DNA of 64,000 nucleotides, from the IMG/VR virus record IMGVR_UViG_3300023184_000046, positions 56,030 through 120,029 of that record; one strand, given 5' to 3'. The notes below the pieces were generated by a model that saw only the letters and a list, made by a program, of their open reading frames with translations, was not told the DNA's origin and searched no databases. This DNA is from a virus. Positions 2 through 45,090 of this stretch are shown here, piece by piece; the first letter of the stretch is position 1; every line of letters begins with the position of its first letter. The translations under genes and the position numbers were made by a program.

Positions 2-511
2 AAAGAAATTGATATAAAAAGATATTTCATTTTTACAGTTTTAAGAAATCCTTGGGATAGAATGGTTTCTTATTATTTTTTTTACAGAGACATTGTTAAA
101 AGAAATGAAAAAATAGCAAATAAAGCTAAGAAATTTGATTTCAAAGATTGGGTTTCTTACATTTATGATAATCCGAAAATTTTTAATTTTATTCACGATA
201 ATTGTTTAGACTATTTAACATGCGAAGATAAAGTAATTGTTGATTATATTATAAACTTCCATAATTTCTCAGAAGACATTGATGATTTGAAAAATATTTT
301 ACATTTAAAATTGCCTACATTGCATGTTAATTCTTCTAAACATGATTTTTACAAAGACTATTATTCAGAAAAAGAAATTGAAATAATATCAAAAATTTAT
401 AAAAGAGACATTGATTATTTTAATTTTGATTTTGAAAAAACAACTCAAATGAGTAAAATAATAAATGAAGAAAAAATTAATATTATTAGAAATAAAAAAA
501 TTAGTTTATAA
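2..511 (+). CDS. Sulfotransferase family 2 protein, 5'-truncated by window edge
   Basis: Frame is open from base 2 (KEIDIKRYFIFTVLRNPWDRMVSYY), which is the 3'-PAPS-binding RNPxxRxxS motif. C-terminal HVNSS..Y..YY...IYKRDIDYFNF is shared with the paralog at 5082. Confidence 0.8.
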   Translation, partial: KEIDIKRYFIFTVLRNPWDRMVSYYFFYRDIVKRNEKIANKAKKFDFKDWVSYIYDNPKIFNFIHDNCLDYLTCEDKVIVDYIINFHNFSEDIDDLKNILHLKLPTLHVNSSKHDFYKDYYSEKEIEIISKIYKRDIDYFNFDFEKTTQMSKIINEEKINIIRNKKISL

Positions 512-520
512 AGGTAAAAT

Positions 521-721
521 ATGATAATTATTCCAACTGAAATCAAATTAAGTGTAAAATTTTTAACTATTGATGCCAATACTGAGTCAGTAGTCGAAAC
601 TAATGATTTTTCATTAGATTTTCAAAAAATTGATAAAACCCTTTTCATAGAAGCTTATGAAGCATTAGAAAAAATTAAGCAAGAATTGATTGAAAAAAGC
701 AAAAAACTAAATCAATCTTAA
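521..721 (+). CDS. Hypothetical protein
   Basis: 66-aa ORF in tandem context with AAGGT upstream. Confidence 0.6.
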   Translation: MIIIPTEIKLSVKFLTIDANTESVVETNDFSLDFQKIDKTLFIEAYEALEKIKQELIEKSKKLNQS

Positions 722-732
722 TACATATTTTT

Positions 733-1320
733 ATGAACTTTGCTTTATGGTTAGAAAAAAAAGATATAGAACTATATGAATCTATTTTAAATGAAATGGA
801 TCGCAGAGAATTTTTAAAAGCTGCTGGTCTTGGATTAGCTGGATTAACTGGTTCTAATGCAGAAGCTGCTCCTGAAGAAGAACCCAGTAGAAAAAAAGAA
901 ATAACTATAAAGCCAATGACAGCTTCTTTGCAAAATGATTCTCCAAATGGCATGTTTTCTATAACAATAGAAAATGCCAAAGGTAAAAAAACTCATGATA
1001 TTCAATTTTTAATAAAAAAACAAATTGAGAAATTTTTAAACAACAGACAATTGAAGCTAAAAGATCCTTATGTAAATATAGATGTCTATTCTTATTTGAC
1101 AAATAAAACAAAAGATGATGTTCATGAAAAATTTATTACCACGAAAGATTTATTTATTTCTTATCCTCATGGTTCTTCATCAAATAAACTAGAAGCTTTT
1201 TTAATGAATAATAAGGATGCATATGATAATGATTCTTTAACATTTGTATTTAAATATACAGAGAAAAGACCTAAAGGTAATGGACAAGGCAATCCTTTGC
1301 AAAATCCTTTAAGAAAATAA
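733..1320 (+). CDS. Hypothetical protein with capsid-targeting-like leader followed by a Tat (twin-arginine) signal
   Basis: MNFALWLE...LNE then MDRREFLKAAGLGLAGLTGSNAEA (RRxFLK, h-region, AxA). Confidence 0.7.
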   Translation: MNFALWLEKKDIELYESILNEMDRREFLKAAGLGLAGLTGSNAEAAPEEEPSRKKEITIKPMTASLQNDSPNGMFSITIENAKGKKTHDIQFLIKKQIEKFLNNRQLKLKDPYVNIDVYSYLTNKTKDDVHEKFITTKDLFISYPHGSSSNKLEAFLMNNKDAYDNDSLTFVFKYTEKRPKGNGQGNPLQNPLRK

Positions 1321-1515
1321 TTAATTACCTTCAGTTTTTTCTTCTAACCATTCTTTAAAAGATTTAAATTTCTTCTTTTTTTTCTTGTGCTTAACAACTT
1401 TATCAGGCAATTTTGAATAATCAGTTTTCCTTGACCATTCCCCACAATCTACTTTTCCTCCAAATCCGTTACTTGCAAAACAAGCCTTCATTTGTGCTTT
1501 ACTAGAAAATGGCAT
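1321..1515 (-). CDS. Small basic phage protein (MPFSSKAQ...)
   Basis: AGGAG RBS before ATG at 1515. Ends in FKSFKEWLEE, like the capsid-targeting motif. Confidence 0.6.
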   Translation of the reverse strand: MPFSSKAQMKACFASNGFGGKVDCGEWSRKTDYSKLPDKVVKHKKKKKKFKSFKEWLEEKTEGN

Positions 1516-1569: not shown

Positions 1570-1878
1570 ATGAAAGATAAATACTTGCTTTACTTGTCTG
1601 GAGTTATAAATGAAGAAACTTTTATTAAACAATCAAAAAATATAAAAGAATCCGAAAACAAAGAACTTAACAATTATATGTTTTTTCAAAACTTAAATGT
1701 TATTAAAAAGTGTATAGAAGATGTGTTAAATATGAATCAGGAAGATGTAGATAATTTATTGGAAGATGGTCATGATTGGGCTAACGATCATATTTCTGGA
1801 GCAAAGAATTCTATTGAACAAGTATGTGATTGGCTTAGAAATTCAACTAATAAAGATAAAAATATGGAGAATATGTAA
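1570..1878 (+). CDS. Hypothetical phage protein
   Basis: AGGAG RBS. NNYMFF...GHDWANDH motifs. Stop/start overlap with the next gene. Confidence 0.7.
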   Translation: MKDKYLLYLSGVINEETFIKQSKNIKESENKELNNYMFFQNLNVIKKCIEDVLNMNQEDVDNLLEDGHDWANDHISGAKNSIEQVCDWLRNSTNKDKNMENM

Positions 1879-2654
1879 TGGGAGGCAGTGAATCTATTGT
1901 AACTTGTGCAGATAGGAATAATCCAAATTTTCAAGTTTGGGGTGCAATGTCCGATCTTGGATGTAATAAAAAAAAGAAATATAAATTTAAATCATTCAAA
2001 GAATGGATTTCGACAAATAAAATACATCTTGAAGCTATAACTCTAGGAACTGAAGAAGTTGATGAAAGTCAAATAGATTCTGCTTATCAAAATGCAAAAT
2101 ACGCAGTTCAATTAGTAAAATTATATGATTTGACATTTCCTAAAGGCCAGAAGTTACTTGCAAACATAAGTACCATAGCGACTTTAAACCAAGGAGTTTA
2201 TGGTCTTTATAATTCTAAGGAAAATAAAGAAGTTATATTAAACCAACTTGCTATAAAACCAGAACAGCTTAATAAAATTAAAATGACTTTTGGTCAAGAT
2301 GCAATTGGAAAAGAAAATATTGATGGATTGCCTAGAGATGTAGTAAAAGGTGTATCTCTTAATGTTATTAAGAAATACATTCCCGAAATTAATGTTTCAA
2401 ATTTTTCGCCATCTAGTGTCATACATGTAAATGTTCAAAAACATTTGCAAAATCATAAAGATCCAATATCAGCAGTAATAGAATTAGCAAGCACCATCGT
2501 ACACGAAGCAACTCACGAATTAGATTTCACAAATACTAATGCAACATCAGAATCAAGTGCTGTAGCAGCAGAAGGTAAATTCAAAAATTGGGTTAAAAAT
2601 AACTGGAATATGATAACTCAAAAAATAAAATTTTTTTCAGAAAAGGTAAAGTAA
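1878..2654 (+). CDS. Putative zinc metallopeptidase-like protein
   Basis: TIVHEATHE (HExxH) with downstream E. Internal FKSFKEWI motif. Confidence 0.55.
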   Translation: MGGSESIVTCADRNNPNFQVWGAMSDLGCNKKKKYKFKSFKEWISTNKIHLEAITLGTEEVDESQIDSAYQNAKYAVQLVKLYDLTFPKGQKLLANISTIATLNQGVYGLYNSKENKEVILNQLAIKPEQLNKIKMTFGQDAIGKENIDGLPRDVVKGVSLNVIKKYIPEINVSNFSPSSVIHVNVQKHLQNHKDPISAVIELASTIVHEATHELDFTNTNATSESSAVAAEGKFKNWVKNNWNMITQKIKFFSEKVK

Positions 2655-2657
2655 AAT

Positions 2658-4487
2658 ATGAAAAAATATAAAAAAATCTTTATTCTTGGTTCAACAGAGC
2701 CTCCAATTACTACAACACCAGAACCAACGACCACAACACCAGAACCTACGACCACAACACCAGAACCTACTACCACAACAACGGTTGCACCTACTACTAC
2801 AGAAGCACCTACAACAACAACGACTACTACAGAAGCACCTACAACAACAACGACTACAGAAGCACCTACAACAACGACTACTACAGAAGCACCTACAACA
2901 ACGACTACTACAGAAGCACCTACAACAACGACTACTACAGAAGCACCTACAACAACAACGACTACAGAAGCACCTACAACGACTACTACAGAAGCACCTA
3001 CAACAACAACAACAACGACTACTACAGAAGCACCTACAACAACAACGACTACTACAGAAGCACCTACAACAACAACGACTACTACAGAAGCACCTACAAC
3101 AACAACGACTACAGAAGCACCTACAACAACGACTACTACAGAAGCACCTACAACAACGACTACTACAGAAGCACCTACAACAACAACGACTACTACAGAA
3201 GCACCTACAACAACGACTACTACAGAAGCACCTACAACAACGACTACTACAGAAGCACCTACAACAACAACGACTACTACAGAAGCACCTACAACAACAA
3301 CGACTACAGAAGCACCTACAACGACTACTACAGAAGCACCTACAACAACAACGACTACTACAGAAGCACCTACAACAACAACGACTACTACAGAAGCACC
3401 TACAACAACAACGACTACTACAGAAGCACCTACAACAACAACGACTACTACAGAAGCACCTACAACAACGGTTGCACCTACGACAACGGTTGCACCTACG
3501 ACAACGGTTGCACCTACGACAACGGTTGCACCTACGACAACGGTTGCACCTACGACAACGGTTGCACCTACTACGACTACATCAACTACTACCACACCAG
3601 AAGTTTGTCCTGCACTTTTTAATAGATTGGCTAATCTTAAAATTAGAAAAAGAAAAATTAAAGAATCTTTAAAAAACAATAAAGAAATTTATTCTAAAAA
3701 TGATAAAAATTATAATTATAAATCTTTAAGGAATATGATTGAAGAAATTAAAGATAAAATTAAAAAAATCAAAAAACAAATTATAGACAATTGTCCAGGT
3801 CCAAAATGTGATGCTGCTAAAAAAGCTGTAAGTGACAAAAAAGAAGAAAATAAAAAAAATGAAGCAGATTTGAAAAGTACACAAGAAGGAATTTTAAAAT
3901 TAGAAAAATTGGTCAAGGCAAACTTTACTAAAAAAGGAGATGCAGTAGATGAAACAGTTTGTGTAAATAAATGTGAAAGCAGCAAAACAGCTTGTTTGAA
4001 TAATTGTGGTAAAAACCAAAAATGTAAAGTCAACTGTGAAAATAATAGAAAAACTTGTGTTACTAATTGTATAGAAACAAATGTACTTGCAAATTTTAAA
4101 GTAATCGACAACGCTGTTTTAAAAATTGATCCAATTAATAAAAATATTGCAAAATTAAATTTTGACCTTGATGTTTTAAATGATCTGCAAGAAGAAAATC
4201 CAACAAATTCTAGGAAAAAAGAAATTGAAAATGTTAAGATAGAAATTGAAAATAAAAATAAAGAATATACACAAAAATTGGATGAACTTGGTAACTTGTG
4301 TAAAAAAGGTATAAAAAAACATGGAAAAGAATATTCTCCTTTTAAAACTCCAGCTATAAGTTTTAATAATATTAAAGATATATTAGCAAAGAAAAGGCTA
4401 GCAGAAAAATTACAACTTTATGTAGATAAAGGACGAAAAGAACTAAAGGATTTAGAAGCAAAAAAGAAAGAGATTTGTGGCAATTGA
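2658..4487 (+). CDS. Mucin-like Thr/Pro-rich repeat protein with Cys-rich and coiled-coil C-terminus
   Basis: About 300 aa of T(n)EAP/TTTVAP repeats, then a Cx3Cx6Cx3C-type Cys cluster and Lys/Glu-rich helices. Confidence 0.8.
   Translation: MKKYKKIFILGSTEPPITTTPEPTTTTPEPTTTTPEPTTTTTVAPTTTEAPTTTTTTTEAPTTTTTTEAPTTTTTTEAPTTTTTTEAPTTTTTTEAPTTTTTTEAPTTTTTEAPTTTTTTTTTEAPTTTTTTTEAPTTTTTTTEAPTTTTTTEAPTTTTTTEAPTTTTTTEAPTTTTTTTEAPTTTTTTEAPTTTTTTEAPTTTTTTTEAPTTTTTTEAPTTTTTEAPTTTTTTTEAPTTTTTTTEAPTTTTTTTEAPTTTTTTTEAPTTTVAPTTTVAPTTTVAPTTTVAPTTTVAPTTTVAPTTTTSTTTTPEVCPALFNRLANLKIRKRKIKESLKNNKEIYSKNDKNYNYKSLRNMIEEIKDKIKKIKKQIIDNCPGPKCDAAKKAVSDKKEENKKNEADLKSTQEGILKLEKLVKANFTKKGDAVDETVCVNKCESSKTACLNNCGKNQKCKVNCENNRKTCVTNCIETNVLANFKVIDNAVLKIDPINKNIAKLNFDLDVLNDLQEENPTNSRKKEIENVKIEIENKNKEYTQKLDELGNLCKKGIKKHGKEYSPFKTPAISFNNIKDILAKKRLAEKLQLYVDKGRKELKDLEAKKKEICGN
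2706..3600 (+). repeat. Coding tandem repeat (ACAGAAGCACCT + variable ACA/ACG/ACT runs; 18-bp ACGACAACGGTTGCACCT units)
   Basis: Directly visible, with unit lengths in multiples of 3. Confidence 0.95.
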
Positions 4488-4894: not shown

Positions 4895-5089
4895 ATGAAG
4901 ACTTTTATAGAATTTGTAAAAGATTTGTATGGAGAAGAAATAGTTGGAATATATCCACCTTTATATAACGGAGTTGGACAATATCCTCCTCTTGCTAATC
5001 AAACTGGCTCAGATATGATTTATGTTAAAGCAAGTAGAGATAGCTTAAAAAAGAAAAAGAAAAAGAAAAAGAAAAAGAAAATTAATTAA
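4895..5089 (+). CDS. Small capsid-targeting-motif protein with poly-Lys tail
   Basis: MKTFIEFV start. TATAAATA at 4886-4893. Confidence 0.6.
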   Translation: MKTFIEFVKDLYGEEIVGIYPPLYNGVGQYPPLANQTGSDMIYVKASRDSLKKKKKKKKKKKIN

Positions 5090-5726
5090 ACATTTTCTTA
5101 GTTATAAATTTTTTAAATATATCATATTTTTCTTTATTTATAACTCTATCAAAATCAGAATAATATTTATCATCAAAATTAAACTTGAAGTAATCAATGT
5201 CTTTCTTGAATATTTCAGAAACCATTTTTATATTATCATCATTTTTATAATAATTTTTATAATACTCATGATTGCTTTTGTTAACATGAAGCAAATTATC
5301 TTTTCTATTTATTATATTTCTTATAAATTCAAAATCTTTCTTTATAGTATGAAGATTACAAATATAATCAACAATTATATTATTGTCTTCAGAAATCCAA
5401 TCAAGTACTGTTCTAATATGAGAATTACTATTTAAGAAAGCATTATATTCATTTTTCAAATAAGTGTCAAAACATGGATTTTCATGAATGAACAATTCTT
5501 TGGTTTGAAATGAATTACCTGACTTAATCTGATAAAAATAAGACGAAACAATTCTTGTCCAAGGGTTCCTCGTGCAAGCAAAAACTAAATATTTTTCATA
5601 TATTCTAGGAAATGATTTTTTGTAATAAGAAGCAGCACGATGCTCTTGATTACTTTTGAAATATTTAGTAATAGAAGACCCACCAGTTTTTGGAATATGT
5701 ATAAATATAAAAGGATTTGTTATCAT
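5082..5726 (-). CDS. Sulfotransferase family 2 protein
   Basis: FIHIPKTGGSSI (5'-PSB loop) and RNPWTRIVSSYFY (3'-PB) motifs. Confidence 0.85.
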   Translation of the reverse strand: MITNPFIFIHIPKTGGSSITKYFKSNQEHRAASYYKKSFPRIYEKYLVFACTRNPWTRIVSSYFYQIKSGNSFQTKELFIHENPCFDTYLKNEYNAFLNSNSHIRTVLDWISEDNNIIVDYICNLHTIKKDFEFIRNIINRKDNLLHVNKSNHEYYKNYYKNDDNIKMVSEIFKKDIDYFKFNFDDKYYSDFDRVINKEKYDIFKKFITKKMFN

Positions 5727-5785: not shown

Positions 5786-6238
5786 ATGAAGTTTAAATTT
5801 TGGATAATGACAGAAGAATTAATTTCATCTTTACCAAGAGATGATTATGGATCTCCAATTGCATGGGAAGAAGATAACTACAGAATAACACTTTATAATA
5901 CTAGCAATTACTTTAATGCTTATTTGATGCACAATGAAAACAATTGGAAACAAATTGGTTCATTGAAAACAAAAATATCTACAAAAAAAATAAATGGCAC
6001 TAAAATTAAATACGCTGAAGTTTCTACTATCTCTCTTCATAAAGAACACCAAAATAAAGGCTTTGGAACTCAGCTTTATAAAATATTATTAAAATATTTG
6101 CCAGATGATATTGTTGGTATTGGATCAAATTTACAATACAGACTAAATAAAAAAGAAATACCTAAAATATATCAAAAATTAGGATATGAATCTTATAATG
6201 ATGGTGATTTTCAATTAATAAAAAAAAATACAATTTAA
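5786..6238 (+). CDS. GNAT-family acetyltransferase with capsid-targeting-like N-terminus
   Basis: HQNKGFGTQLY acetyl-CoA motif A and IYQKLGY motif B. MKFKFWIMTEE start. Confidence 0.65.
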   Translation: MKFKFWIMTEELISSLPRDDYGSPIAWEEDNYRITLYNTSNYFNAYLMHNENNWKQIGSLKTKISTKKINGTKIKYAEVSTISLHKEHQNKGFGTQLYKILLKYLPDDIVGIGSNLQYRLNKKEIPKIYQKLGYESYNDGDFQLIKKNTI

Positions 6239-6261: not shown

Positions 6262-6915
6262 ATGAAAATTCTTAAATTTAGCCATATTACAAAAACTGCT
6301 GGATCTACAATAGTGTGGATTGCACATTTAGATAATGTAAAATGGGGCTGGGGCGATGAACAATTCTGGAAGAATCTTATAGTTTCTTCAAGATATAAGT
6401 ATAAAGGTTGCATTTGGCATTTTCCAATAAGTTTTTGTGAAAACAAGTTATTAAATGAAACACTTTTAAAGTATAATTTTTTTACAGTAGTTAGAAACCC
6501 ATATGAGCGATGTATCAGTGAATATTATTGCAAATGGGGAGGGCCAGAAATTAAATCTAAAGAAAAAAAAGATTTCAACTCTTATATTCAAAAAAATCTA
6601 ATAGATATTAAAAATTTTAAATTTACATCTGGTCATTTTATTCCGCAATTTTTTTATGCATATGACGAAAATAATAAAAGAATTATTGAAGATGTATTGA
6701 AATATGAAAATATAGAAACTGAATTTAATAATTTGATGAATAAATATAATTATAAATTTAAATTTTTTTACGATAAAAATAAAAATTTAATTAAAAAATT
6801 CAAACAATGTGATTTTTCAAAAGAAACTATAAAGTTAATACAAGAAGTTTATTATAAAGATTTTATTTTTTTTAACTATGATTTAGAACCTGTAATAAAT
6901 ACATGTGATTTTTAA
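6262..6915 (+). CDS. Sulfotransferase family 2 protein
   Basis: HITKTAGSTI, VRNPYERCISEYY, HFIPQ and YYKDFIFFNY motifs. Confidence 0.85.
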   Translation: MKILKFSHITKTAGSTIVWIAHLDNVKWGWGDEQFWKNLIVSSRYKYKGCIWHFPISFCENKLLNETLLKYNFFTVVRNPYERCISEYYCKWGGPEIKSKEKKDFNSYIQKNLIDIKNFKFTSGHFIPQFFYAYDENNKRIIEDVLKYENIETEFNNLMNKYNYKFKFFYDKNKNLIKKFKQCDFSKETIKLIQEVYYKDFIFFNYDLEPVINTCDF

Positions 6916-7781: not shown

Positions 7782-7846
7782 TATAATATTCTAATATTTA
7801 AGTGCTTAAATAGCAATAAAATACAAAGCAAATCATAAATAAATAT

Positions 7847-10867: not shown

Positions 10868-11887
10868 ATGAACATAGCAATACTCGGAGCAATAGACGAA
10901 CCAACTTGGCTTGAAGACATTCAAACTAAATTGATGGCAACTAATAAATTTCAATTAGTTGATATTGTTGATGTTATAGAGTCTACACCAACTCTTTCAA
11001 CTTTGTTGAATTATGACTCGTTATTGGTCTTTAATGATATAGATTACTATGACAATCTAGAATTGGGAAATATAATTGCTGATTACATTGATACTGGAAG
11101 AGGAGTAGTCACTTCGGTTTTTGAAACAGCAGGGGAAATGGGCTATTTGCAAGGAAGATGGAGTAGCGAAGGATACTATGTGATCGACCCATCTGGACAG
11201 GAAGATGGTATTCAATTATATCTTGGAACTGTATTTATTCCATCTCATCCCATCATGGTTGGAGTTACTACATTTGATGGCGGTTCTAGTAGTTATTATG
11301 GATCAGGAAGTCTTTCTCTTTACACTACGCTAATCGCTAATTGGACTAATGGATCACCTCTCATTGCAGAAAAATCAAATAAGGATAATGGCGATCCAAT
11401 AGCTGGCAAATGTGTTGCTTTAAATTTTTACCCGCCTTCTTCAGATGTTAGAGTTGATTTTTGGAATCCTGCTACTGATGGTGCAACAATAATGGCTAAT
11501 GCTTTGGAATACGCAGCAGGAGGAGTAGTAGTAAATTACACAGTTAAATTGACTCCAGATGAAGTTAATATTGGAACCGAAGGGTACTTAGATACTTCTG
11601 TTGTTAATGGTGTATCCAAACAAAGAACTATTGGGCCTGTTGAAACTGTATTTTCTAATGGTGATCGAAAAGTTGTAGGAAACTTAAAAGATGGAGATAA
11701 TTTTGATAATCAAGTACAAAATTTAGCTGACATTATTGGATTGATTGAATTAACTACAACGACAACGACTCCAGAACCTACAACAACTACTACAACTACA
11801 ACACCTGCACCAACTACTTCAACTACCACAACTACCACAACTACTCCTGCACCAACGACTACAACGACAACAACTGTTGCACCATAA
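10868..11887 (+). CDS. Probable virion-associated protein with Thr/Pro-rich tail
   Basis: TATAAATA at 10836-10843 plus AAGGA RBS. Gly/Thr/Asp-rich body and C-terminal TTTTPEP/PAP repeats. Confidence 0.6.
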   Translation: MNIAILGAIDEPTWLEDIQTKLMATNKFQLVDIVDVIESTPTLSTLLNYDSLLVFNDIDYYDNLELGNIIADYIDTGRGVVTSVFETAGEMGYLQGRWSSEGYYVIDPSGQEDGIQLYLGTVFIPSHPIMVGVTTFDGGSSSYYGSGSLSLYTTLIANWTNGSPLIAEKSNKDNGDPIAGKCVALNFYPPSSDVRVDFWNPATDGATIMANALEYAAGGVVVNYTVKLTPDEVNIGTEGYLDTSVVNGVSKQRTIGPVETVFSNGDRKVVGNLKDGDNFDNQVQNLADIIGLIELTTTTTTPEPTTTTTTTTPAPTTSTTTTTTTTPAPTTTTTTTVAP

Positions 11888-11894
11888 ATAAATT

Positions 11895-13852: not shown

Positions 13853-13901
13853 TTGTATAGTATTAAAAACTCAAATAATTTTTTAATTGCATAAATAAAC
13901 T

Positions 13902-17868: not shown

Positions 17869-17907
17869 AAGCGGAACTAATTCGCCTCGCTACCGCATAA
17901 ATAAACT

Positions 17908-18488: not shown

Positions 18489-19292
18489 ATGGATACTTTT
18501 GAAAATGCTACATCTTGGCTTCACCCTAATGGAACTTTCCATCCAATTAAAAAATATGGTAGCCATTCAAACTGGGCTTATCACAATAATAAAAAACTAG
18601 AAGAACTTTTTGCATCTGGATGGATGAGAGTAACTTTTATAGGCGATACTATCTATGTTAGCAATGATCTTTCTGTTCTTCCAACTTTTAAACAAAAAAA
18701 ATCAATAATGGATTTGTCAATAGAAAGTAACGAAAGATTTAAAAAAGCAATCTATGAAAATGGCAAAGGAAAAGAAACTACATTATTCTCATCTTATGAC
18801 TTCTCAGAATCAAATAATCACATCAACTTTAAAAACTGGCTACTACTCTCTGAAACTAGAGAAGGACTTCTACGATACCTTAAAGAAAAATTACCACATG
18901 TTCCTGAATATGTCTTATTTGATTTATTTTATAGAACTATTAAAAATTCTAAACCTGAAGAAATAGAAGAATTTATAGAAACATATAAAGATTATAAATG
19001 GGAACTTAAAACAAATTTTCCTATAAACTACGAAATATTTGATACTAACACTATCCGTAATTTTAAGGAAAGAAAAGGTGGATCAGAAAACCCTTATGGA
19101 GTTCCTAACGATAAACAAAGACATGATAAACAAAAAGAATTAATCGCAATTACAATTCCTAAAGAACCAATCATATTAATAAAAAATGGTACTAAATATT
19201 CACTTGCAGAAGGATGGCATAGAACCATTCAATTATTTGAAAAATATCCAAAAGGATTTGTATACCCACAAGTTTATATAGGTATACCATGA
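18489..19292 (+). CDS. Two-domain protein with C-terminal ParB/Srx-like domain
   Basis: EPIILI...LAEGWHR. Internal INFKNWLLLSE. Start moved to the ATG 4 nt after CATAAATA. Confidence 0.55.
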   Translation: MDTFENATSWLHPNGTFHPIKKYGSHSNWAYHNNKKLEELFASGWMRVTFIGDTIYVSNDLSVLPTFKQKKSIMDLSIESNERFKKAIYENGKGKETTLFSSYDFSESNNHINFKNWLLLSETREGLLRYLKEKLPHVPEYVLFDLFYRTIKNSKPEEIEEFIETYKDYKWELKTNFPINYEIFDTNTIRNFKERKGGSENPYGVPNDKQRHDKQKELIAITIPKEPIILIKNGTKYSLAEGWHRTIQLFEKYPKGFVYPQVYIGIP

Positions 19293-24375: not shown

Positions 24376-26217
24376 TTATTTAGTAACTAACTTTTTGATG
24401 GCCCTGCAAAGTAGTGGCAGGGATGACATCGTATCAGCAAGCGTAACCCAGTTACCTTGGCCGTAAAGCTTGTCGCCTATTCGATGATCGAAAGCATTAG
24501 CAATCCCGATTCCGAATACTCCAACTCCCGATTTTCTAGCTTCAACTACACATTTGTTTGTGTGATTTACTCCTAGACTTCCATCGTAACAGTTAGCACT
24601 TGGTTGACCATCTGAAATAACAAACAGATGATGAATCGAGTTAGCATTTGCTGGATTGGTTTCTATCATTTTTTGAGATATAAACCTCACGGCAAATCCA
24701 TCTGCATTGTTTGCAATTCCATCTGCAACTGCCAAGTTTTTAGTGTTGTCGAAACCTTTCCCAAAATATGGGAACATTTGGACAACATTGGCAACTCCAC
24801 CAGAATCAGCGGTATGACCATAAACAACTAAGTCTATGCCCCTAATGCCTTTTATGGCTTCGACAAGCTGCAAGCAAACTGTTCTTGCATCTGTAATGTT
24901 TCGGCCCATCATACTGCCTGACTGGTCAAGCAATAATCCAATGGTGTACTGTTTTCCTTTAGGCACTTCCTTTGTCTCAAATAGGCGAATCTTTTCACCC
25001 ATTTGAAATTTATGAAGTCCATTAACATCGAGATCGCCAAGCGTTTTACCAAAGTCTGGCCTTGCAAGCTTTACCGATTTAAACGCAAAGCTATTTTTAA
25101 TAGCTTCGATTGCTCTGCGATTTTTTATTAGAAAATCTCGGTAAGCATCTTTGGTTTTTGGCTTCATCCTAGCGTTTGTAACTTGATACTTGACCTTGGC
25201 TGGATCACCTTCCTTGGCTTCTGGTTCTTCGAGTTTTACTTCTTCTGGTTTTTCATCACCAGAGGAAAGCTTGTTTAACTCTGCAAGAACTGGTGAATGT
25301 TCTTCTGGTACTGGCGAATCTAAGAGTCTTTCAGCAGGTGTTTTAAATGGCGAACCATGGCCCTTGCACTTTTTATCTTTTCCTTCACCTTCACCATCGC
25401 CACCTTCAGCTTCTCCTTCACCATCTTCACCTTCACCACCTTCACCACCTTCACCATCGCCATCTTCACCTTCACCATCTTCTGGTGGTGCTGGTGGTGC
25501 TGGTGGTGCTGGTGGTTTTTCTTCTTCTTCCAATTCGATTATTTTGTCCTTAATCGTCTTGTAGATTCGTTCTGCGACTTCCAGTCTTTCATATCCCTCT
25601 GGACTATGATTGACTTTGAAATCCTCGGAAACATGGTCAAGAATCTCTTTAAATTCTTCCCAATGTTCTTGGATACCAGTATCACCAAAGTCTACTTCTG
25701 ATTGTGGCAATGTCCACTTTTCCATGATTGCGTTTACTTTTTCTGTCATGCTAGTTTTCTGGTTCACTTGTTTTTCGCATGAAATAGATTCTTGAAAAGC
25801 TTCAACTTCTGGTGTGAAACCAGTCCACTTTTCTTTGACTTTATCAAAGCTATTTTTGGTCAAGATTCCGTTGAAAATACTAATGCCTGTTTTACTTACC
25901 ATGTCACCAGTTTGACTGGTAAATCCTGTTACTGACATTTTCTCTTTGCTGGTCTTGCTTCTTAGCATTTCTTGCTTCGCAAGTATTCTACCCTTTTCTT
26001 CAAGCATGGCCTGTTCTACTTGTTCGACCTTTTTGCCATCAGCACTAATAAATTTACCAGCATCAATCACGATACTGTTTGAAGCACTTGCACCAGTAGC
26101 TTGTGTGAACCGAACTTCAATATTCTTTTCTGATCCATCTGAACTGTTCTGGATTAAATTGGCGGTGTTTGCCAATTCCCTAAGAATATCCATGCCAACA
26201 TCTTTGTTATTACTCAT
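24376..26217 (-). CDS. vWA-domain protein (CobT/NorD-like partner of MoxR ATPase), copy 1
   Basis: MIDAS LLDQSGSM...ISDGQP. Acidic Gly/Glu linker. Directly downstream of the AAA+ gene. Confidence 0.85.
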   Translation of the reverse strand: MSNNKDVGMDILRELANTANLIQNSSDGSEKNIEVRFTQATGASASNSIVIDAGKFISADGKKVEQVEQAMLEEKGRILAKQEMLRSKTSKEKMSVTGFTSQTGDMVSKTGISIFNGILTKNSFDKVKEKWTGFTPEVEAFQESISCEKQVNQKTSMTEKVNAIMEKWTLPQSEVDFGDTGIQEHWEEFKEILDHVSEDFKVNHSPEGYERLEVAERIYKTIKDKIIELEEEEKPPAPPAPPAPPEDGEGEDGDGEGGEGGEGEDGEGEAEGGDGEGEGKDKKCKGHGSPFKTPAERLLDSPVPEEHSPVLAELNKLSSGDEKPEEVKLEEPEAKEGDPAKVKYQVTNARMKPKTKDAYRDFLIKNRRAIEAIKNSFAFKSVKLARPDFGKTLGDLDVNGLHKFQMGEKIRLFETKEVPKGKQYTIGLLLDQSGSMMGRNITDARTVCLQLVEAIKGIRGIDLVVYGHTADSGGVANVVQMFPYFGKGFDNTKNLAVADGIANNADGFAVRFISQKMIETNPANANSIHHLFVISDGQPSANCYDGSLGVNHTNKCVVEARKSGVGVFGIGIANAFDHRIGDKLYGQGNWVTLADTMSSLPLLCRAIKKLVTK

Positions 26218-26336
26218 GTTCAATCATCCTTTAAAAAACTACAAAAACAAAAAGCTTGCAAAACATTTGCAAGCTTGATTACCACAATCAAATTTAACCC
26301 CCCTAATTCTTTGATTAGAGGGGTTTAAAAGGTTTA

Positions 26337-27581
26337 CTAGGCTAATCCCGCACCCTTCAACAACTCCCGAATTTTAGCCCTTTCGGATTCCTTAGAACCA
26401 TCATCTGTAAAATGGTTCACGATAGAAAATTCCAAACTGCTATTCCCGATTACTGCAAGCTTGGAAGCTGCGTTTTCCAGCAATCTGGTACTTAAGCTTT
26501 TGGTGTAAACTTCGCAAGCTTTATGTTTTGCACGAACTGTTCGGGCAATCATTGCAAGCTTATCTGACCTTGCAGCATCTAGGCCATGCTTACGCTGCAA
26601 TAGCAAGCTTTCATCCTTTTCATCGAGATAATCGACTTCGATTATATCGGAGAACCGATCACTAATTGCACCATCCATTTGATCTGTTCCCGTGAATTGC
26701 GATCCTTCATTCATCGTAGCAAAGAATGTAACTCCCGCTGCAACTGTGATAAACTCGCCAGTATCATCGAGAAAAGTTTGCCCCCTTGAATCTGCCATGG
26801 GAAGAAAAGTATTCATTGCCATTGGACTAAGGCGGTTGATTTCATCCAAGATGACTACCATCCTTGGCACTCTAATAGCGTTTACAAATTGGGAATAAAT
26901 CCATCGTATTCCCTTGTCATCCGCTGTTTTGAAACCAAACAAATCTTTGGCTTCACGCAAGGTAGGGCAATCAATTATTACTGCTGGTCTTTTTGCCTTG
27001 GCAGCAAATTGTAAGGCCAGCATTGTTTTCCCGCATCCAGCAGGGCCGACCAAACGAATCTTTGCACTAGGTTTACCCGCTGCGAAATCCCTGCGAGATA
27101 ACTTTTCAATCCCATTCAAATATTCCTTCAACTTTGGGTTGAAGGTAAAGTGGGGATCAATTGTTGGTATTGGAACTGGTGCAACTACTGGTGCAACCTT
27201 GGGAACAACTGGTGCTGGTGCTGGTTTAACTGCAACTGGTGCTGATTCCAATTCAGCATCTTTTGGCACTTCATAACCATCATCTAGGCCATCATCGTAT
27301 TCACTCATACTCTCAATATCCTCCATAAAGTTTTCTTCTTCAACTGGTGCAACTGGAACAACAACTACTGGTTTAACTGGTGCTACTGGTGTTTCACCAG
27401 CTTTAACTGCTTCCTTATACTGATGTCTTACTGCTGACCACTCAGCCTTTGTGATTTCGATACAAGCATCTTGGCAAGTCTTATGACAAGCTTCAAAGCT
27501 TGCCAAACCCTTTGAGTTTACCATTACTTCCCTAAGTAATTTGTACTTTTCGCTTCTTGCTTCACGGCTGAAAAAACTCAT
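26337..27581 (-). CDS. MoxR-family AAA+ ATPase (CobS/CbbQ/NorQ-like), copy 1
   Basis: Walker A GPAGCGKT, Walker B VILDEINR, ATMNEG..FTGT..MD.A..DRF, STRLL. AGGAG RBS at MSFFSR. Confidence 0.9.
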   Translation of the reverse strand: MSFFSREARSEKYKLLREVMVNSKGLASFEACHKTCQDACIEITKAEWSAVRHQYKEAVKAGETPVAPVKPVVVVPVAPVEEENFMEDIESMSEYDDGLDDGYEVPKDAELESAPVAVKPAPAPVVPKVAPVVAPVPIPTIDPHFTFNPKLKEYLNGIEKLSRRDFAAGKPSAKIRLVGPAGCGKTMLALQFAAKAKRPAVIIDCPTLREAKDLFGFKTADDKGIRWIYSQFVNAIRVPRMVVILDEINRLSPMAMNTFLPMADSRGQTFLDDTGEFITVAAGVTFFATMNEGSQFTGTDQMDGAISDRFSDIIEVDYLDEKDESLLLQRKHGLDAARSDKLAMIARTVRAKHKACEVYTKSLSTRLLENAASKLAVIGNSSLEFSIVNHFTDDGSKESERAKIRELLKGAGLA

Positions 27582-27660
27582 AATCAAACTCCTAAATTTA
27601 AAAAAAACAACAAAAAACCACATGGCAACAAAACCCTGTGGTGTGATAAGCTTATTGGTA

Positions 27661-27691
27661 TATCGGTTTGAAACTCGATCCATTTTCAACT
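27661..27691 (-). promoter_or_regulatory. AGTTGAAA-N17-CCGATA promoter-like motif
   Basis: 80 bp upstream of MoxR copy 1. Confidence 0.75.
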
Positions 27692-29482: not shown

Positions 29483-31285
29483 TCAAGATGTAATTAGTTT
29501 TTTGATCTCTCGGCAAAGCAAAGGTAAAGAACTAATTGTATCCTTTAGGATTACATAATTTCCCGAACCGTAAAGAGAAGTGCCAACGGAATTGTCAAAG
29601 GCGTTTTGAATGCCAATTCCAAAAACATTAATCTTTCTTTCGGTAGACTGTTTCACGCATTTAGCCGTGTGTCTAATACCATTGTTTCCCGCATAGCAGA
29701 TTGCTGCTGGTTGACCATCTGAGATGACAAACAGGTGGTGTACGCTGTTTGCATTTGCAGGATTGGTTTCCAACATTCTCTCTGATATAAATCGGACAGC
29801 AAATCCATCTGCATTGTTTGACAATGCTTGTGCATTTGCTAGTCCAATGGTATTATCAGCACCCTTCTGATAATAAGGAATCATCTCTAGTGTGTTACCT
29901 TCGCCACGATCTGCGGAGTGTCCATAAACTACTAGGTCGATTCCTTTTATGCTTTTTATAGCTTCCACTAAAGCAAGGCAAACTGTAGAAGCATCTTTTA
30001 TCTTACTTCCACACATACTGCCTGATTGGTCTAGTAAAATTCCAATGGTATATTTCTTACCCTTGGGGATTTCCTTTTCTTCAAACAGGCGAATCTTTTC
30101 ACCCATATGAAATTTGTGTAAACCGTTGATATCAAGATCACCGACTGTCTTGCCAAAATTTGGTCTAGACAAGTGAACCGATTTAAAAGCAAACGATTGT
30201 TTTATAGCTTCAATCATTCTGCGATTGGTAATCATAAAACTACGATAAGTTTCCTTGTCTCTATTTGTTGGTTTAAACTTATGAACCCTTACTTTTATTT
30301 TTGCAGGGTCATAAGCTTCAGCGGATGAGGGAATATCTTTTGGAGTATCGTTGTTTGCCTTTAGATCCTGAAAACCTTGTGGGCTTGCAGAATTATCAGG
30401 TCGTTCAATAATTCTATCTCCAATGTTTTTAGAATCTCTTAAAGGCTTTTTACCTTCAGGATTTTCACCTTCACCTTCACCTTCACCTTCACCTTCACCT
30501 TCACCTTCACCTTCACCTTCACCTTCACCTTCACCTTCAGGTGCTTCAGGCGTTTCATCTTCACCTTCTGGCGTTTCAGGTGTTTCAGGCGTTTCATCTT
30601 CTACTTCTGTAATCCTAGAAGCGATTTCATCGTAGATTCTTTTTGAGATTTTTAACCTCTCGTTTTTTGCCGTTGGCTTTTTAAATTCTTCAGCTACATG
30701 ATCGAGAATCTTTTCAAAATCTTCAAAGTGTTCGCCAAGGCCAGTATCACCAAAATCAATGTTAGAATTTGGTAGTGTCCATTTTTCGATTATGGATTCT
30801 ACCTTTTCTTCCATTCTAGATTCTTTGGTAACTGAAATATCCTGACCAATAGAATCTTTAAAAGATTCAATCTCAGGTGCAAAGCCTGACCATTTTTCTT
30901 TAACACTATCAATTGCATTTTTAGCAGATACACCATTAAAGATTGTTTTTATCTCAGGTGTAGCTAACTCAGTAGATTCTTCTGAAAATCCACTAAGCGT
31001 CATTCGTTCATGTTGCGTAGTGGTTTTGAGTAATTCTTGTCTAGTCAAGATTCTACCCTTTTCCTCAGATAAAGCTTTATCATTAAGAACCAAGCTTCCA
31101 TCTTCTGCTGTAAACTTAGATAGATCAGCAACTAAATCTGTACGATCTGTTGTAGATTTAAATCCAACCGACAAGGTTTTCTCTTTATCACCCTCGCAAC
31201 CATTTGATAAAAGGTTTGCGGTTTTGGTCAATTCTGCCAAAATTTCTTGTCCGATTACGATGCTTTCTTTAGTCTTAGTATTCAT
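29483..31285 (-). CDS. vWA-domain protein, copy 2
   Basis: ILLDQSGSM...ISDGQP. (GE)n linker. Collinear paralog of 24376-26217. GAGGA RBS at MNTKT. Confidence 0.85.
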   Translation of the reverse strand: MNTKTKESIVIGQEILAELTKTANLLSNGCEGDKEKTLSVGFKSTTDRTDLVADLSKFTAEDGSLVLNDKALSEEKGRILTRQELLKTTTQHERMTLSGFSEESTELATPEIKTIFNGVSAKNAIDSVKEKWSGFAPEIESFKDSIGQDISVTKESRMEEKVESIIEKWTLPNSNIDFGDTGLGEHFEDFEKILDHVAEEFKKPTAKNERLKISKRIYDEIASRITEVEDETPETPETPEGEDETPEAPEGEGEGEGEGEGEGEGEGEGEGEGENPEGKKPLRDSKNIGDRIIERPDNSASPQGFQDLKANNDTPKDIPSSAEAYDPAKIKVRVHKFKPTNRDKETYRSFMITNRRMIEAIKQSFAFKSVHLSRPNFGKTVGDLDINGLHKFHMGEKIRLFEEKEIPKGKKYTIGILLDQSGSMCGSKIKDASTVCLALVEAIKSIKGIDLVVYGHSADRGEGNTLEMIPYYQKGADNTIGLANAQALSNNADGFAVRFISERMLETNPANANSVHHLFVISDGQPAAICYAGNNGIRHTAKCVKQSTERKINVFGIGIQNAFDNSVGTSLYGSGNYVILKDTISSLPLLCREIKKLITS

Positions 31286-31349
31286 ATTATCCTCATTTGA
31301 AAAAAGTAAAAAGGTAAAGCCCCACCACATTGGCAGGGCTTTGAAACAA

Positions 31350-32540
31350 CTACTCTGAAAGTCCTGAACCCTTAAGCAATTCCCGAATTTTTGATCTTTC
31401 CGAATCTTTGCTACCATCGTCAACAAAATGGCTAACAAGAGAATACTCAAGAGAACAAGCACCAATTTTAGCAAGCTTTTTAGCTGCGTTTTCCAGCAAT
31501 CTGGTGCTTATGCTTTTAGTATAAACTTCACTAGCCATAAATTTAGCCCTGACCGTTTTTGCAACCAATGCAAGCTTATCCGATCTAATTTTATCAAGAC
31601 CATGTTTTCTTTGCAGGAGCAAACTTTCATCAGGTTCTGATAAATAATTGATAGGAATCAAATCACAAAATCTATCGCATAAAGCGGAGTCCATTTGATC
31701 CGTTCCAGTAAACTGCGATCCTTCATTGCAGGTACTGAAAATCGTCACGCCTGCTGCAACCTTTATTTCCTCTTTGCTTTCGTCAAGATATGTTTCACCC
31801 CTAGAATCTAGCAAAGGCAATAAAGTATTCATGGTCATAGGGGATAATCTGTTTATTTCATCCATTACGATTACCATGCGGGGTATTCGTATTGCATTGA
31901 CGAATAAACTATTAACCCATTTAAGACCATCTTTATCTACTGTTTTATTACCGAATAAACTTAGCCCTTCTCTAAGTGTCATGCAGTCGATTATGACACA
32001 TGGGCGTTTGGTTTTAGCTGCAAACTGAATTGCCATGCTGGTTTTACCACAACCTTGATGGCCAACCAACCTGATAGCTGCACTAGGTTTGCCTGCTGCA
32101 AAGTCATCTCTCGACATTTGTTCAATGCCATTGAGATAATTTTTAAGATTGGTATCAAAGGTAAAATGAGGGTCAATCTGGTGCATAAATTTAGCTTTAA
32201 CCCACTCAGGGTATTCTGCTTTTTTAGGTGCAGGTGCAGGAACAAATTCTTCCATTTCAGGTTCATCCATAGGTTCAGGTTCTTCCATTACAGGAGCAGG
32301 AGCAGGTTCTTCCATTACAGGTATTGGTGCAGGTGCAGGTATTGGTGTTTCACCTGCTGCGATAGCATTTTTATACTGGTGTTTGATAGCACTCCAGTCT
32401 GCCTTAGATACTACAATGCCAACTGCTGCCAATGATTTATGGCAATGTTCAAAAGATGCTTCACCTTTAGTATTAACGAATATTTCCCTAAGTAAACGAT
32501 ACTTAGTAGTCCTAGCTTCTCTGCTGAAAAAATTACTCAT
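31350..32540 (-). CDS. MoxR-family AAA+ ATPase, copy 2
   Basis: GHQGCGKT, VMDEINR, STRLL. Paralog of 26337-27581. Confidence 0.9.
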   Translation of the reverse strand: MSNFFSREARTTKYRLLREIFVNTKGEASFEHCHKSLAAVGIVVSKADWSAIKHQYKNAIAAGETPIPAPAPIPVMEEPAPAPVMEEPEPMDEPEMEEFVPAPAPKKAEYPEWVKAKFMHQIDPHFTFDTNLKNYLNGIEQMSRDDFAAGKPSAAIRLVGHQGCGKTSMAIQFAAKTKRPCVIIDCMTLREGLSLFGNKTVDKDGLKWVNSLFVNAIRIPRMVIVMDEINRLSPMTMNTLLPLLDSRGETYLDESKEEIKVAAGVTIFSTCNEGSQFTGTDQMDSALCDRFCDLIPINYLSEPDESLLLQRKHGLDKIRSDKLALVAKTVRAKFMASEVYTKSISTRLLENAAKKLAKIGACSLEYSLVSHFVDDGSKDSERSKIRELLKGSGLSE

Positions 32541-43325: not shown

Positions 43326-43478
43326 ATGAAAAAATTAGTTTTACTATGTGTGTTTATATCAGGATGTGCAGGTGTAAAGAATTCAGTTAACACAGAAGCA
43401 AAGACATCCTACTATCCAAATAACACACAAAGTATTGAACGAATAGATTTATCTATTCAAATGAAAAAAGAATGGTAG
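43326..43478 (+). CDS. Small lipoprotein (not in ORF track)
   Basis: MKKLVLLCVFISGC lipobox, AAGGAG RBS, 50 aa. Confidence 0.65.
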   Translation: MKKLVLLCVFISGCAGVKNSVNTEAKTSYYPNNTQSIERIDLSIQMKKEW

Positions 43479-43551
43479 CTCCCCCTCTTGGACTCGAACC
43501 AAGAACCCCGAAATTAACAGTTTCGTGCTCTACCAATTGAGCTAAGGAGGA
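43479..43551 (-). tRNA. trnN: tRNA-Asn (GTT)
   Basis: TCCTCCTTAGCTCAATTGGTAGAGC...CTGTTAA...GGTTCGAGTCC...AGGGGGAG cloverleaf. Confidence 0.93.
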
Positions 43552-43691
43552 ATAAAACCACATTAATCAATATTAACAATAATTAGCAATATATCAAGTT
43601 AATTACATTCTTTAAAATAATATTTTAAATAAATTTTTTGTGTTTACTAAATAAGTTATGACAACCTTCATAACCTTTAGGATAAACACCC

Positions 43692-44240
43692 ATGATAAAG
43701 CTTAAATGCCTATTTTGTTATTCCAATTTGACAGGTAAAAAAATAAAATATTGCTCAAAAAACTGCGAAAACAAATATAAAGTAGAAAAAAACAAGATGA
43801 ATAGACATAAAGAAAAAGCTTTAAAGCCAAAAATTAAATGTCTAGTGTGTAAAACATTTATTCCAGAAGGAAAAAGAAAATTTTGTTCTGCTAATTGTGC
43901 TTGCAAATACAAAAACAGAGAAGATAATGGTGCTAGTTCTTATAAAAGCCAGTTAAAAAGAGCTAAAGAAAGAAAATTAATATTAATTAATATGCTTGGT
44001 GGCTCATGTCAATCTTGTGGTTATTGTAAAAATTACTCCGTTTTATCTTTTCATCATGTAGATCCAAAACTTAAAAAGTTTGGAATAGACTCTCGTCAAT
44101 GCTCTAATCGTAGTTGGGAAACTCTATTTGAAGAAGTAGCCAAATGTATCCTCCTTTGTCTTAATTGCCATTCAGAATTACATCATCCACAATGTTCTAT
44201 TGGGCCAGCAGGGAATCGAACCCTGTCTGCCGAATTATGA
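43692..44240 (+). CDS. HNH endonuclease with N-terminal Cys-rich zinc-binding repeats
   Basis: CQSCGY...FHHVDP...LLCLNCHSELH. Confidence 0.85.
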   Translation: MIKLKCLFCYSNLTGKKIKYCSKNCENKYKVEKNKMNRHKEKALKPKIKCLVCKTFIPEGKRKFCSANCACKYKNREDNGASSYKSQLKRAKERKLILINMLGGSCQSCGYCKNYSVLSFHHVDPKLKKFGIDSRQCSNRSWETLFEEVAKCILLCLNCHSELHHPQCSIGPAGNRTLSAEL

Positions 44241-44272
44241 GTTCGGAACTCTATCCAATGAGTTACAGGCCC
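44201..44272 (-). tRNA. tRNA with CAT anticodon (probably Ile2, possibly elongator Met)
   Basis: GGGCCTGTAACTCATTGGATAGAG...CTCATAA...GGGTTCGATTCCC...GGCCCA. G1-C72 pair, so not an initiator. Confidence 0.85.
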
Positions 44273-44293
44273 ATATTTTAAGTTTATTTAAAT

Positions 44294-44977
44294 TTATGAT
44301 TTTAAGCAAGAGTATTTCTCTAACTTTATTAAACCTTTATCTAATTCTTTATGATGATTAGGGCACAATGCAACTAAGTTTTTAATATCATTAACATCTT
44401 TAATCAATGTTTCCATCGTAAAAGATGCAATGCTTTTAATGTGACAAATCTCAATATAAATAGAATAACCACAAACATAACAGCATTTAGGTTCACCTGA
44501 TTTCTTATAAACTCTTCTGGCGTGATCTCTTATACCAGCGTGTCTATTAGAACCCTTGCCTCTTAAATAATGTAATCCTAATGTATTTTCACCAATATCT
44601 TTTATTTTTGTTATTTTAATAAAACATTTTTTACAATAAGATGCACCAGTTGAAATGTATGTCTCACATCCATCATGGCCACATTTATTAGTAAAGGTTC
44701 TTTTTTTAAAGTTTTTATTATTAATCTTGGCAGAACAGCTTGAAGAACAATATACTAATCCACTAGGAGATATTTCTTTTAACCTGCGATTTACTTCTTT
44801 ATTACAGGAAGAGCAGTTGTAAGTGCCACTTTGGGCGTTTTTTATTTTATCGCTTAAAGAAACATAAGGAACACAATCATAGCAGGATGTCCTATTGCCA
44901 CATTTAATTCTTTTTCCATTAACTTTAGTATTTACTAAGAATTCCTTATTGCACTTAATACAAATTTTGGTCTTCAT
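44294..44977 (-). CDS. HNH endonuclease with Cys-rich N-terminus
   Basis: CYVCGY...EICHIK...NLVALCPNHHKELD. Confidence 0.85.
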   Translation of the reverse strand: MKTKICIKCNKEFLVNTKVNGKRIKCGNRTSCYDCVPYVSLSDKIKNAQSGTYNCSSCNKEVNRRLKEISPSGLVYCSSSCSAKINNKNFKKRTFTNKCGHDGCETYISTGASYCKKCFIKITKIKDIGENTLGLHYLRGKGSNRHAGIRDHARRVYKKSGEPKCCYVCGYSIYIEICHIKSIASFTMETLIKDVNDIKNLVALCPNHHKELDKGLIKLEKYSCLKS

Positions 44978-45017
44978 AAATTATTTTATGAAGATTAATT
45001 AAAAATGCAAATTGAAA

Positions 45018-45090
45018 AGCTAATGGAGAGACTTGAACTCTCAACTTCAGGTTTACAAAACCTGCACTCTACCAATTGAGTTACACTAGC
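45018..45090 (-). tRNA. trnT: tRNA-Thr (TGT)
   Basis: GCTAGTGTAACTCAATTGGTAGAG...TTTGTAA...AGTTCAAGTCT...CATTAGCT. Confidence 0.92.

Follow-up and report, generated by a model that had tools for sequence, protein, structure and literature searches.

The window that we analysed, the last 64 kb of a linear virus record of 120,029 bp (G000:C1:56030-120029), contains an open reading frame (ORF) at 733-1320 (+) that encodes a protein of 195 residues, in which the leader MNFALWLEKKDIELYESILNE (residues 1-21) is followed by MDRREFLKAAGLGLAGLTGSNAEA (residues 22-45) and then by the mature part. The leader resembles the capsid targeting sequence (CTS) of phage T4 and the second segment resembles a signal for twin-arginine translocation (Tat). 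We tentatively propose that the protein carries a two-step address, in which the T4-like leader would load it into the phage head and the Tat system of the next host would export it after ejection. Among the explanations that we considered this is the single most likely one, with ordinary Tat export in the infected cell close behind. An earlier note on this DNA had described a leader followed by an RRxFLK Tat signal with an AxA cleavage site, and the residues that we delimited match that description exactly.

Conservation of the leader and of the twin-arginine signal

Of 122 candidates from a word-indexed protein search, 12 proteins, counting that of the window, had E <= 0.01, and an exhaustive search of a representative library returned seven matches at E <= 0.001. 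The small number of homologues in both searches indicates a small family, which is also without a Pfam domain. One match from the representative library, the 1496-residue P0016 (residues 42-92, five stretches), was dropped and taken as low-complexity similarity. The 12 aligned proteins are not independent and collapse to seven representatives at 50% identity. Comparison of the target protein with 50,697 phage records by tblastn gave no match. In IMG/VR, 35 stretches fitted the leader peptide patterns and none of them encodes a relative, and the exact 44-nt leader DNA pattern was found in 0 stretches. From 319 pattern matches in a metagenome scan we recovered five loci that encode relatives, with 82-91% identity to the 120-kb contig across kilobases of flanking DNA. 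Near-identical DNA was present in 20 DNA runs from 13 studies, labelled as lake, freshwater or sediment metagenomes, and no RNA run with such DNA was listed among 23 runs.

The leader (733-795 (+), 21 codons ending in L-N-E) follows the pattern M-x-F-x-x-W-L...E and is the most conserved of the multi-residue segments, with a mean pairwise identity of 0.887 among the 12 proteins. The values for the other segments were 0.736 for the twin-arginine (RR) motif (residues 23-29), 0.49 for the hydrophobic (h) and cleavage (c) regions (30-45), 0.46 for the linker (46-60), 0.586 for the domain (61-178) and 0.52 for the tail (179-195), and M22 alone reached 1.0. The invariant columns include M1, F3, W6, L7, E8, K10, D11, L14, S17, I18, L19 and E21 in the leader, and M22, R24, R25, F27 and L28 behind it, in 12 of 12 proteins with that of the window counted. 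Homologue P0011 is identical to the target at 21 of 21 leader positions, 22 of 114 domain positions and 11 of 17 tail positions. The distant homologues P0009 and P0010 are 57% identical overall; six and eight leader residues, respectively, are changed in them, with the frame open and with W6, L7, E8, S17-I18-L19, E21 and the I-L-x-E-M junction retained. The pairing of leader and RR described in the earlier note extends to all 11 other family members and to five of five metagenome loci. A leader that stays constant in front of a fast-diverging cargo suggests that the protein has a role related to host interaction or defence.

By comparison of the family members, residues 22-45 qualify as a predicted Tat-type signal under purifying selection. 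The motif R24-R25-E-F-L-K29 (802-819 (+)) was recognized in the alignment and by TIGR01409, and its arginine codons vary synonymously (CGC/CGT) among the five metagenome loci, where residues 23 and 26 change. Compared with the Tat consensus (S/T)-R-R-x-F-L-K, the window has D-R-R-E-F-L-K, the first position in the family being D, E or Q and not S/T. Thirteen uncharged residues follow (30-42, the Gly/Ala/Leu-rich h-region, 820-858 (+)), and then A43-E44-A45 (859-867 (+)), an AxA motif and putative signal-peptidase site that is not strict across the homologues. The h-region is uncharged and Gly/Ala-rich in all members although its identity is only 49%, and it shows in-frame length variation of the (L-A-G) type, with an extra LAG unit in locus L007 and a 9-nt insertion behind position 838 in the contig of one run (X2). 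This insertion was all that the contigs of four runs added over 500-1400; they listed no variants in 641-837, with run X8 lacking cover at 717-809.

The TIGR01409 (TAT_signal_seq) model scored 15.7-16.0 bits on the 195- and 174-residue forms, compared with the NCBIfam cut-off of 16.7, and 21.2 bits on the 25-residue peptide alone; it matched eight of the 12 family members at E <= 0.1. When the 120-kb contig was searched in six frames for RR with a hydrophobic stretch, five raw matches appeared. Only that of ORF 733-1320 sits, in our judgement, at the N-terminal end of a predicted gene, which places it beyond chance. Tat n-regions are described as net positive, with RR at the boundary of the n- and h-regions, in the accessible part of one source (PMC13673990). 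The net charge of the target is -3 over the leader, -2 over residues 1-25 and +1 for the form starting at M22, so that a positive n-region is lacking in the long form and present in the form from M22. The acidic leader is therefore not a typical Tat n-region, and its removal would yield a canonical signal.

A leader family in a clade of huge phages

The source of the record is a tailed phage. The record is about 24% complete by the CheckV estimate, which implies a genome of roughly 500 kb, and its GC content is 30% overall and about 25% around ORF 733-1320. A 514-residue protein of the record matches baseplate-wedge PHROGs (phrog_219, E 1.2e-28). Its best tblastn match among the phage records was LR756511.1, at 43.6% identity over 99%, compared with 21.6-25.2% for the named phages listed, which were T4-like cyanophages and others. 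LR756511.1, a 595,163-bp uncultured phage, was used as the nearest complete relative; a literature search found no citing paper for LR756511.

Genes of the contig often start with M-[NK]-F-K-x-W-L...[ST]-E or M-K-T-F-x-E-[FY]-[LI]. We defined the strict leader motif as M-x(0-2)-[FY]-x-x-W-[LIFM], which was found at 10 of 148 gene starts in the contig and 18 of 999 in LR756511.1, compared with 0 of 552 and 2 of 3036 internal Met residues. A looser motif was found at 15/148 and 40/999 gene starts and at 1/552 and 32/3036 internal Met residues. Searched as a DNA pattern, the leader gave 10 matches in the record and nine in LR756511.1, and the reversed-pattern controls gave 0 and 1. We conclude that residues 1-21 belong to an N-terminal leader family of a huge-phage clade, and that the family is conserved at the protein level, because its Leu, Phe and Asn/Lys codons vary.

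The cargoes of the leader are diverse and comprise a GNAT domain, a ParB-C-like PHROG and several proteins of 484-610 residues without a family; none of the proteins that bear it received a virion annotation when scanned with PHROG and Pfam. The leader is retained over long evolutionary distance, since a 610-residue protein that begins MNFKNWLILSE... has a 47%-identical homologue in LR756511.1 that starts MEFREWFRSAE...; the 484-residue leader protein had no match in that genome. Genes of the family start at window positions 4895, 5786, 7847, 9298, 11895, 12420, 13902, 16827, 17345, 17908, 19289 and 47563 and at 33554 (-) of the whole record, mostly clustered at 7.8-21 kb of the window. The family may mark the head-cargo set of the clade.

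We also compared the DNA in front of these genes. ATAAATA lies within 16 nt of the ATG in seven of 15 leader-family genes versus seven of 132 others (Fisher p 6e-5), as at 7836-7842, 11884-11890, 13891-13897 and 17897-17903. Among 133 genes, 14 have ATAAATA, 4-5 nt before the ATG, and 54 have a Shine-Dalgarno (SD)-like motif, with both in one gene, so that the two are almost exclusive. ATAAATA appears to resemble the T4 late promoter, and it may be a promoter of this late type that stands near enough to the ATG to leave the mRNAs with almost no 5' leader.

Three leader-like stretches were seen away from gene starts. An internal copy, INFKNWLLLSE, in which Ile replaces Met, is located at residue 113 of a 267-residue ORF (18489-19292 (+)) and may represent a fusion of two genes, a start of an unusual kind or a site of internal processing. 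The leader-like KFKSFKEWI is at residue 39 of the 258-residue protein of ORF 1878-2654 (+), which also has an HExxH motif, VHEATHE. At the C-terminus of the 64-residue protein of ORF 1321-1515 (-) is KFKSFKEWLEEK, and in both proteins the leader-like motif KFKSFKEW[LI] comes after a lysine run.

Resemblance to the T4 capsid targeting sequence and the head module of the clade

The T4 CTS, MKTYQEFIAE, is described as a peptide of about 10 residues that is cut off once, and proteins fused to it enter the head (PMC8442874). The CTS propeptides of T4 are given as 10-20 residues, the prohead proteases of T4, phiKZ and SPN3US as cutting C-terminal to Glu, and identical N-termini on diverged paralogues are interpreted as CTS-like (PMC5694885); T-even internal proteins are reported to be diverse, with the CTS as their only common part (PMC3012670), in each case according to the accessible portion of the paper. 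We compared these peptides with the leader family by eye. MKTFKEFLKQ and MKTFIEYINE of the contig, and MKTFNQWLE and MKTFSEWLE of LR756511.1, share M-K-T-aromatic-x-E-aromatic-aliphatic with the T4 CTS. The target's MNFALWLE shares only the spacing of aromatic, aliphatic and Glu residues. On these grounds the leader family appears to resemble the T4 CTS. The T4 prohead-protease rule is (L/I)-x-E, and in the target family L19-x-E21 directly precedes M22, in an I-L-x-E-M junction that is kept in 12 of 12 proteins.

LR756511.1 encodes a Peptidase_S77 at 95.9 bits. This S77 gene (head maturation protease, phrog_207, E 3.6e-46) is located one gene from that of the major head protein (phrog_138, E 5.2e-81), and two leader-bearing genes, of 165 and 1076 residues, lie 1-7 kb downstream of the head genes on the same strand. 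In this clade the head module is of the T4 type and includes an S77 prohead protease. At 242240-243133 (-) LR756511.1 has a further Peptidase_S77 paralogue, a weak one of 34.8 bits; its ORF begins with the RR-containing MINRRCFIAECAYGLTALVAG, a doubtful Tat signal because the stretch in that N-terminus contains Glu.

We also looked at Tat-like N-termini in LR756511.1. Those that start at Met (MERRGFMF..., MDRRSFLG... and MMETRRGW...) are all without the family leader, and so is ...NSRRNFLK, in which RR is at residue 15. Some hydrogenase and reductase Tat signals have RR at residues 15-18. The leaderless signals indicate that the clade uses the ordinary Tat layout, which makes the Tat signal of the target credible.

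Variation at the DNA level and the start site

The leader DNA and the preceding 60 nt are almost identical in five of five metagenome loci, and variation begins at the Tat signal, at nt 796. In 60-nt bins with terminal gaps handled, the block 513-812 had an identity of 0.92-0.98 to the related loci, and 813-932 had 0.69-0.70. The proposal of a specially conserved DNA island at the leader was downgraded, 513-812 being one of several conserved blocks. We rejected an RNA-level cause for the conservation of the leader, as the fold of nt 690-830 had a z of 0.05 and there was no Rfam match except three tRNAs. Block 513-812 contains the upstream ORF 521-721 (+), which encodes 66 residues without a family in Pfam and PHROG scans. 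The stop of this ORF is 11 nt before ATG 733, making co-transcription and translational coupling possible. Upstream of ATG 733 there is neither a Shine-Dalgarno nor a late-type motif, and the same holds for the internal ATG of M22 (796-798 (+)), a codon that would encode the P1' residue if cleavage takes place as proposed, or would be an alternative start.

In locus L010, DNA similarity ends at nt 823 and returns at 1286. The intervening L010 237-758, compared with window 824-1285, encodes a domain of 19% identity, with the GNPLQNPLRK tail kept and the tail unit duplicated. What lies behind the Tat motif and before the C-terminal tail, the cargo, appears in L010 to be either replaced, in a cassette-like manner, or diverged beyond DNA recognition.

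The proposed two-step address and alternative explanations

From these features of the sequence we infer packaging, cleavage after E21 and export after injection. Translation would begin at ATG 733, probably coupled to the upstream ORF, and the leader would carry the precursor into the prohead core. The prohead protease would then cut after L19-N-E21, leaving M-D-R-R-E-F-L-K as the new N-terminus. Once ejected with the DNA into the next host, the protein would be exported by the host Tat to the periplasm, where signal peptidase would cut near A-E-A45. Tat accepts finished, folded proteins, so that the host Tat could export an ejected protein. The earlier note had proposed that cleavage behind the leader would expose the Tat signal only in the mature virion, for export by the next host. 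That proposal is supported in part by four results: the family to which the leader belongs, the resemblance of that family to the T4 CTS, the clade's T4-type protease and the acidic leader. In dual Sec-Tat membrane proteins, Tat motifs are reported to function at a distance from the N-terminal end (PMC5449189 and PMC3471235, in their accessible portions), so that in the producing cell an extension of 21 residues may leave the signal unmasked.

The last point counts against the two-step address, and so do several others. No S77 protease or Gp23-type capsid match was obtained with Pfam in the 120-kb contig, nor in the control genomes, although the missing matches do not show absence, the contig being an estimated 24% of the genome. 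The neighbours of the target gene are sulfotransferases and other non-structural genes, the target protein has no homologue in LR756511.1, and the target gene is without the ATAAATA that half of the leader genes carry. As judged from the leaderless signals of LR756511.1, the target read from M22 resembles a complete, ordinary Tat precursor with a normal start, and the invariance of M22 in 12 of 12 proteins also fits an internal start, the alternative given in the earlier note. At the DNA level, block 1413-1652 is as conserved as the leader block, so that 513-812 is not unique, and the near-invariance of the leader DNA leaves too few substitutions for a synonymous/non-synonymous test.

Possible too, with a probability a little lower, is ordinary Tat export of the full-length protein, leader included, or of most of it, to the periplasm of the producing cell. 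The leader family would then serve for something other than head targeting, for instance as a common interaction, stability or chaperone-binding helix, and in the target it would form a long n-region. The conservation of the Tat signal, the non-structural gene neighbourhood and the tolerance of Tat for motifs away from the extreme N-terminus (as far as the sources cited above go) are consistent with it, and the other Tat-like signals of the clade make the use of the host Tat look routine. The leader-like motifs inside ORF 1878-2654 and at the end of ORF 1321-1515 (-) would likewise fit a general interaction motif. It accounts poorly for an acidic leader (net -3), unlike Tat n-regions, that is better conserved than the rest of the protein and is common to proteins without an export signal, and for a family that resembles the T4 CTS and adjoins the head module in LR756511.1.

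An arrangement with two products or fates, through use of both ATGs or partition of the precursor, would give a packaged pool and a directly exported pool, and we consider it unlikely. M22 is invariant while residue 23 varies as D/E/Q, the layout from M22 matches the leaderless Tat signals of LR756511.1, and no sequence feature is known to block recognition of the long form by Tat. Against these observations, ATG 796 is without an SD-like or ATAAATA motif and has G at -3, as in 11% of the predicted genes, and one invariant codon in 12 closely related sequences is weak evidence.

We hold it to be quite improbable that the RR/hydrophobic segment is not a Tat signal in vivo and serves instead for membrane insertion or for an interaction, in a protein that is ejected or stays in the cytoplasm. 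The whole-protein TIGR01409 score just under the cut-off (15.7 vs 16.7 bits) and an AxA site that is not conserved in all homologues would allow it. The invariance of RR-x-F-L with synonymous codon change, the 21.2 bits of the peptide alone and an h-region that, at only 49% identity, is without charge and rich in Gly/Ala throughout the family argue for a Tat signal.

Least probable of all is a start at the internal ATG only, with the upstream 63 nt untranslated and in frame by chance as the remnant of a cassette insertion behind an older leader-bearing start: near-invariant leader DNA with variation from nt 796, and an in-frame extension, probably spurious, before MNRRTFM in gene 217923-218555 (-) of LR756511.1, would fit it, but the leader clearly belongs to a family found at protein N-termini, P0009 and P0010 change six to eight leader residues with frame and key residues retained, ATG 733 is at coupling distance from the upstream stop (11 nt), and no RNA structure or Rfam match accounts for conservation of the nucleic acid.

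The mature domain

The signal is followed by an acidic/basic linker (residues 46-60, 868-912 (+)) modelled with low confidence, a folded alpha/beta domain (residues 61-178, 913-1266 (+)) and a basic tail that ends in GNPLQNPLRK (1267-1320 (+), stop codon included). AlphaFold2, run on the alignment, gave a mean predicted local distance difference test (pLDDT) score of 70.7, with residues 34-57 below 50. Domain 61-178 was predicted as beta-beta-alpha-beta-beta...alpha-beta, its ten-residue blocks mostly at pLDDT 83-92 and the lowest at 62 and 73. The mature part after A45 has an isoelectric point of 9.4 and no cysteine.

We attempted to assign the target protein to a known family or fold. Pfam and PHROGs gave no family for the protein. 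For the mature domain, neither Foldseek against the PDB nor a search of BFVD found a match at E <= 0.001, nothing usable came from the ESM Atlas, and the best match of VIA-align wide had a Z of 5.6 (2r8j_A, 96 aligned residues, root-mean-square deviation 3.6), where the noise level of the tool is 7-8. These failed structural searches do not show the fold to be new.

Neighbouring genes

Three Sulfotransfer_2 (PF03567) paralogues are located near the target gene, at 2-511 (+), 5082-5726 (-) and 6262-6915 (+), the first of which is missing from metagenome locus L008, together with a GNAT acetyltransferase bearing the family leader (5786-6238). At 2658-4487 (+) is a 609-residue protein with about 300 residues of Thr-rich, mucin-like TTTTT(T)EAP repeats and then a Cys-/Lys-rich C-terminal part. 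Further along the window we found two sets of CobS/CobT-like AAA+ and VWA protein pairs (24376-27689 (-), 29483-31474 (-) and 46283-47482 (-)) and three tRNA genes (Asn, Met and Thr) at 43478-45090 (-). A gene at 47804-48160 (-), which is 104759-105160 on the minus strand of the whole record, has a Sec-type signal, MKSFIIGLIVLLGISNSADA, with Q as the next residue. A Gln immediately behind the signal-peptide cleavage site is typical of Bacteroidota, and the one behind the predicted cleavage site of MKSFIIGLIVLLGISNSADA is a possible hint of the host.

Significance and comparison with known systems

Phage-ejected proteins are known to act, during entry, either in the cytoplasm or within the envelope channel, and we are aware of no example of one being redirected by an export pathway of the host. 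A literature search that joined ejection proteins with the twin-arginine system found nothing, and as far as our searches go, a CTS-type leader joined to a Tat signal does not seem to be described. The accessible part of a preprint on huge-phage envelopes (10.64898/2026.10.24.761521) does not mention Tat. If the two-step address is true, the protein would be an effector delivered by the virion to the periplasm, present before any phage gene expression and ready-made within minutes of adsorption, with possible uses in superinfection exclusion, protection of incoming DNA or envelope remodelling. The CTS principle of T4 would then also be a conserved one, much enlarged, with tens of cargoes, in phages of about 500-600 kb. 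Independently of the export route, the leader family may provide a simple sequence handle for predicting the head cargo of uncultured huge phages.

On the export side, bacterial Tat signals (TIGR01409) share RR-x-F-L-K, a weakly hydrophobic, Gly/Ala-rich h-region and an AxA c-region with the target. They differ in that the target has 21 net-negative residues before the motif, drawn from a phage leader family on non-exported proteins. The leaderless Tat-like signals of LR756511.1 have the same M-[DEN]-R-R-x-F followed by an uncharged stretch, but are without the family leader and have mature parts unrelated to the target protein.

On the packaging side, the head and ejection proteins of SPN3US, phiKZ and 201phi2-1 are similar in that many proteins are packed into the head, that several of them lose an N-terminal propeptide when a T4-related protease cuts after Glu, and that the N-termini of paralogues stay identical (PMC5694885, in its accessible portion). 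The propeptides of those giant phages are mostly >100 residues with the cleavage motif (S/A/G)-x-E, and bear no sequence relation to the leader described here.

We know of no T4 internal protein with an export signal behind its CTS. The CTS of T4 IPI-IPIII is like the leader in being a short N-terminal peptide common to otherwise diverse proteins of one phage, in the order aromatic-x-x-aromatic-aliphatic then Glu, and in staying constant while the cargo diverges; a T4-type S77 protease and head gene cluster are also present in LR756511.1. The differences lie in length (21 residues here compared with about 10), in sequence (mostly M-[NK]-F-x-x-W-L compared with MKTYQEFIAE) and in the many more carriers here (10/148 and 18/999 genes). 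The leader family would extend the idea of the T4 CTS to a distant clade.

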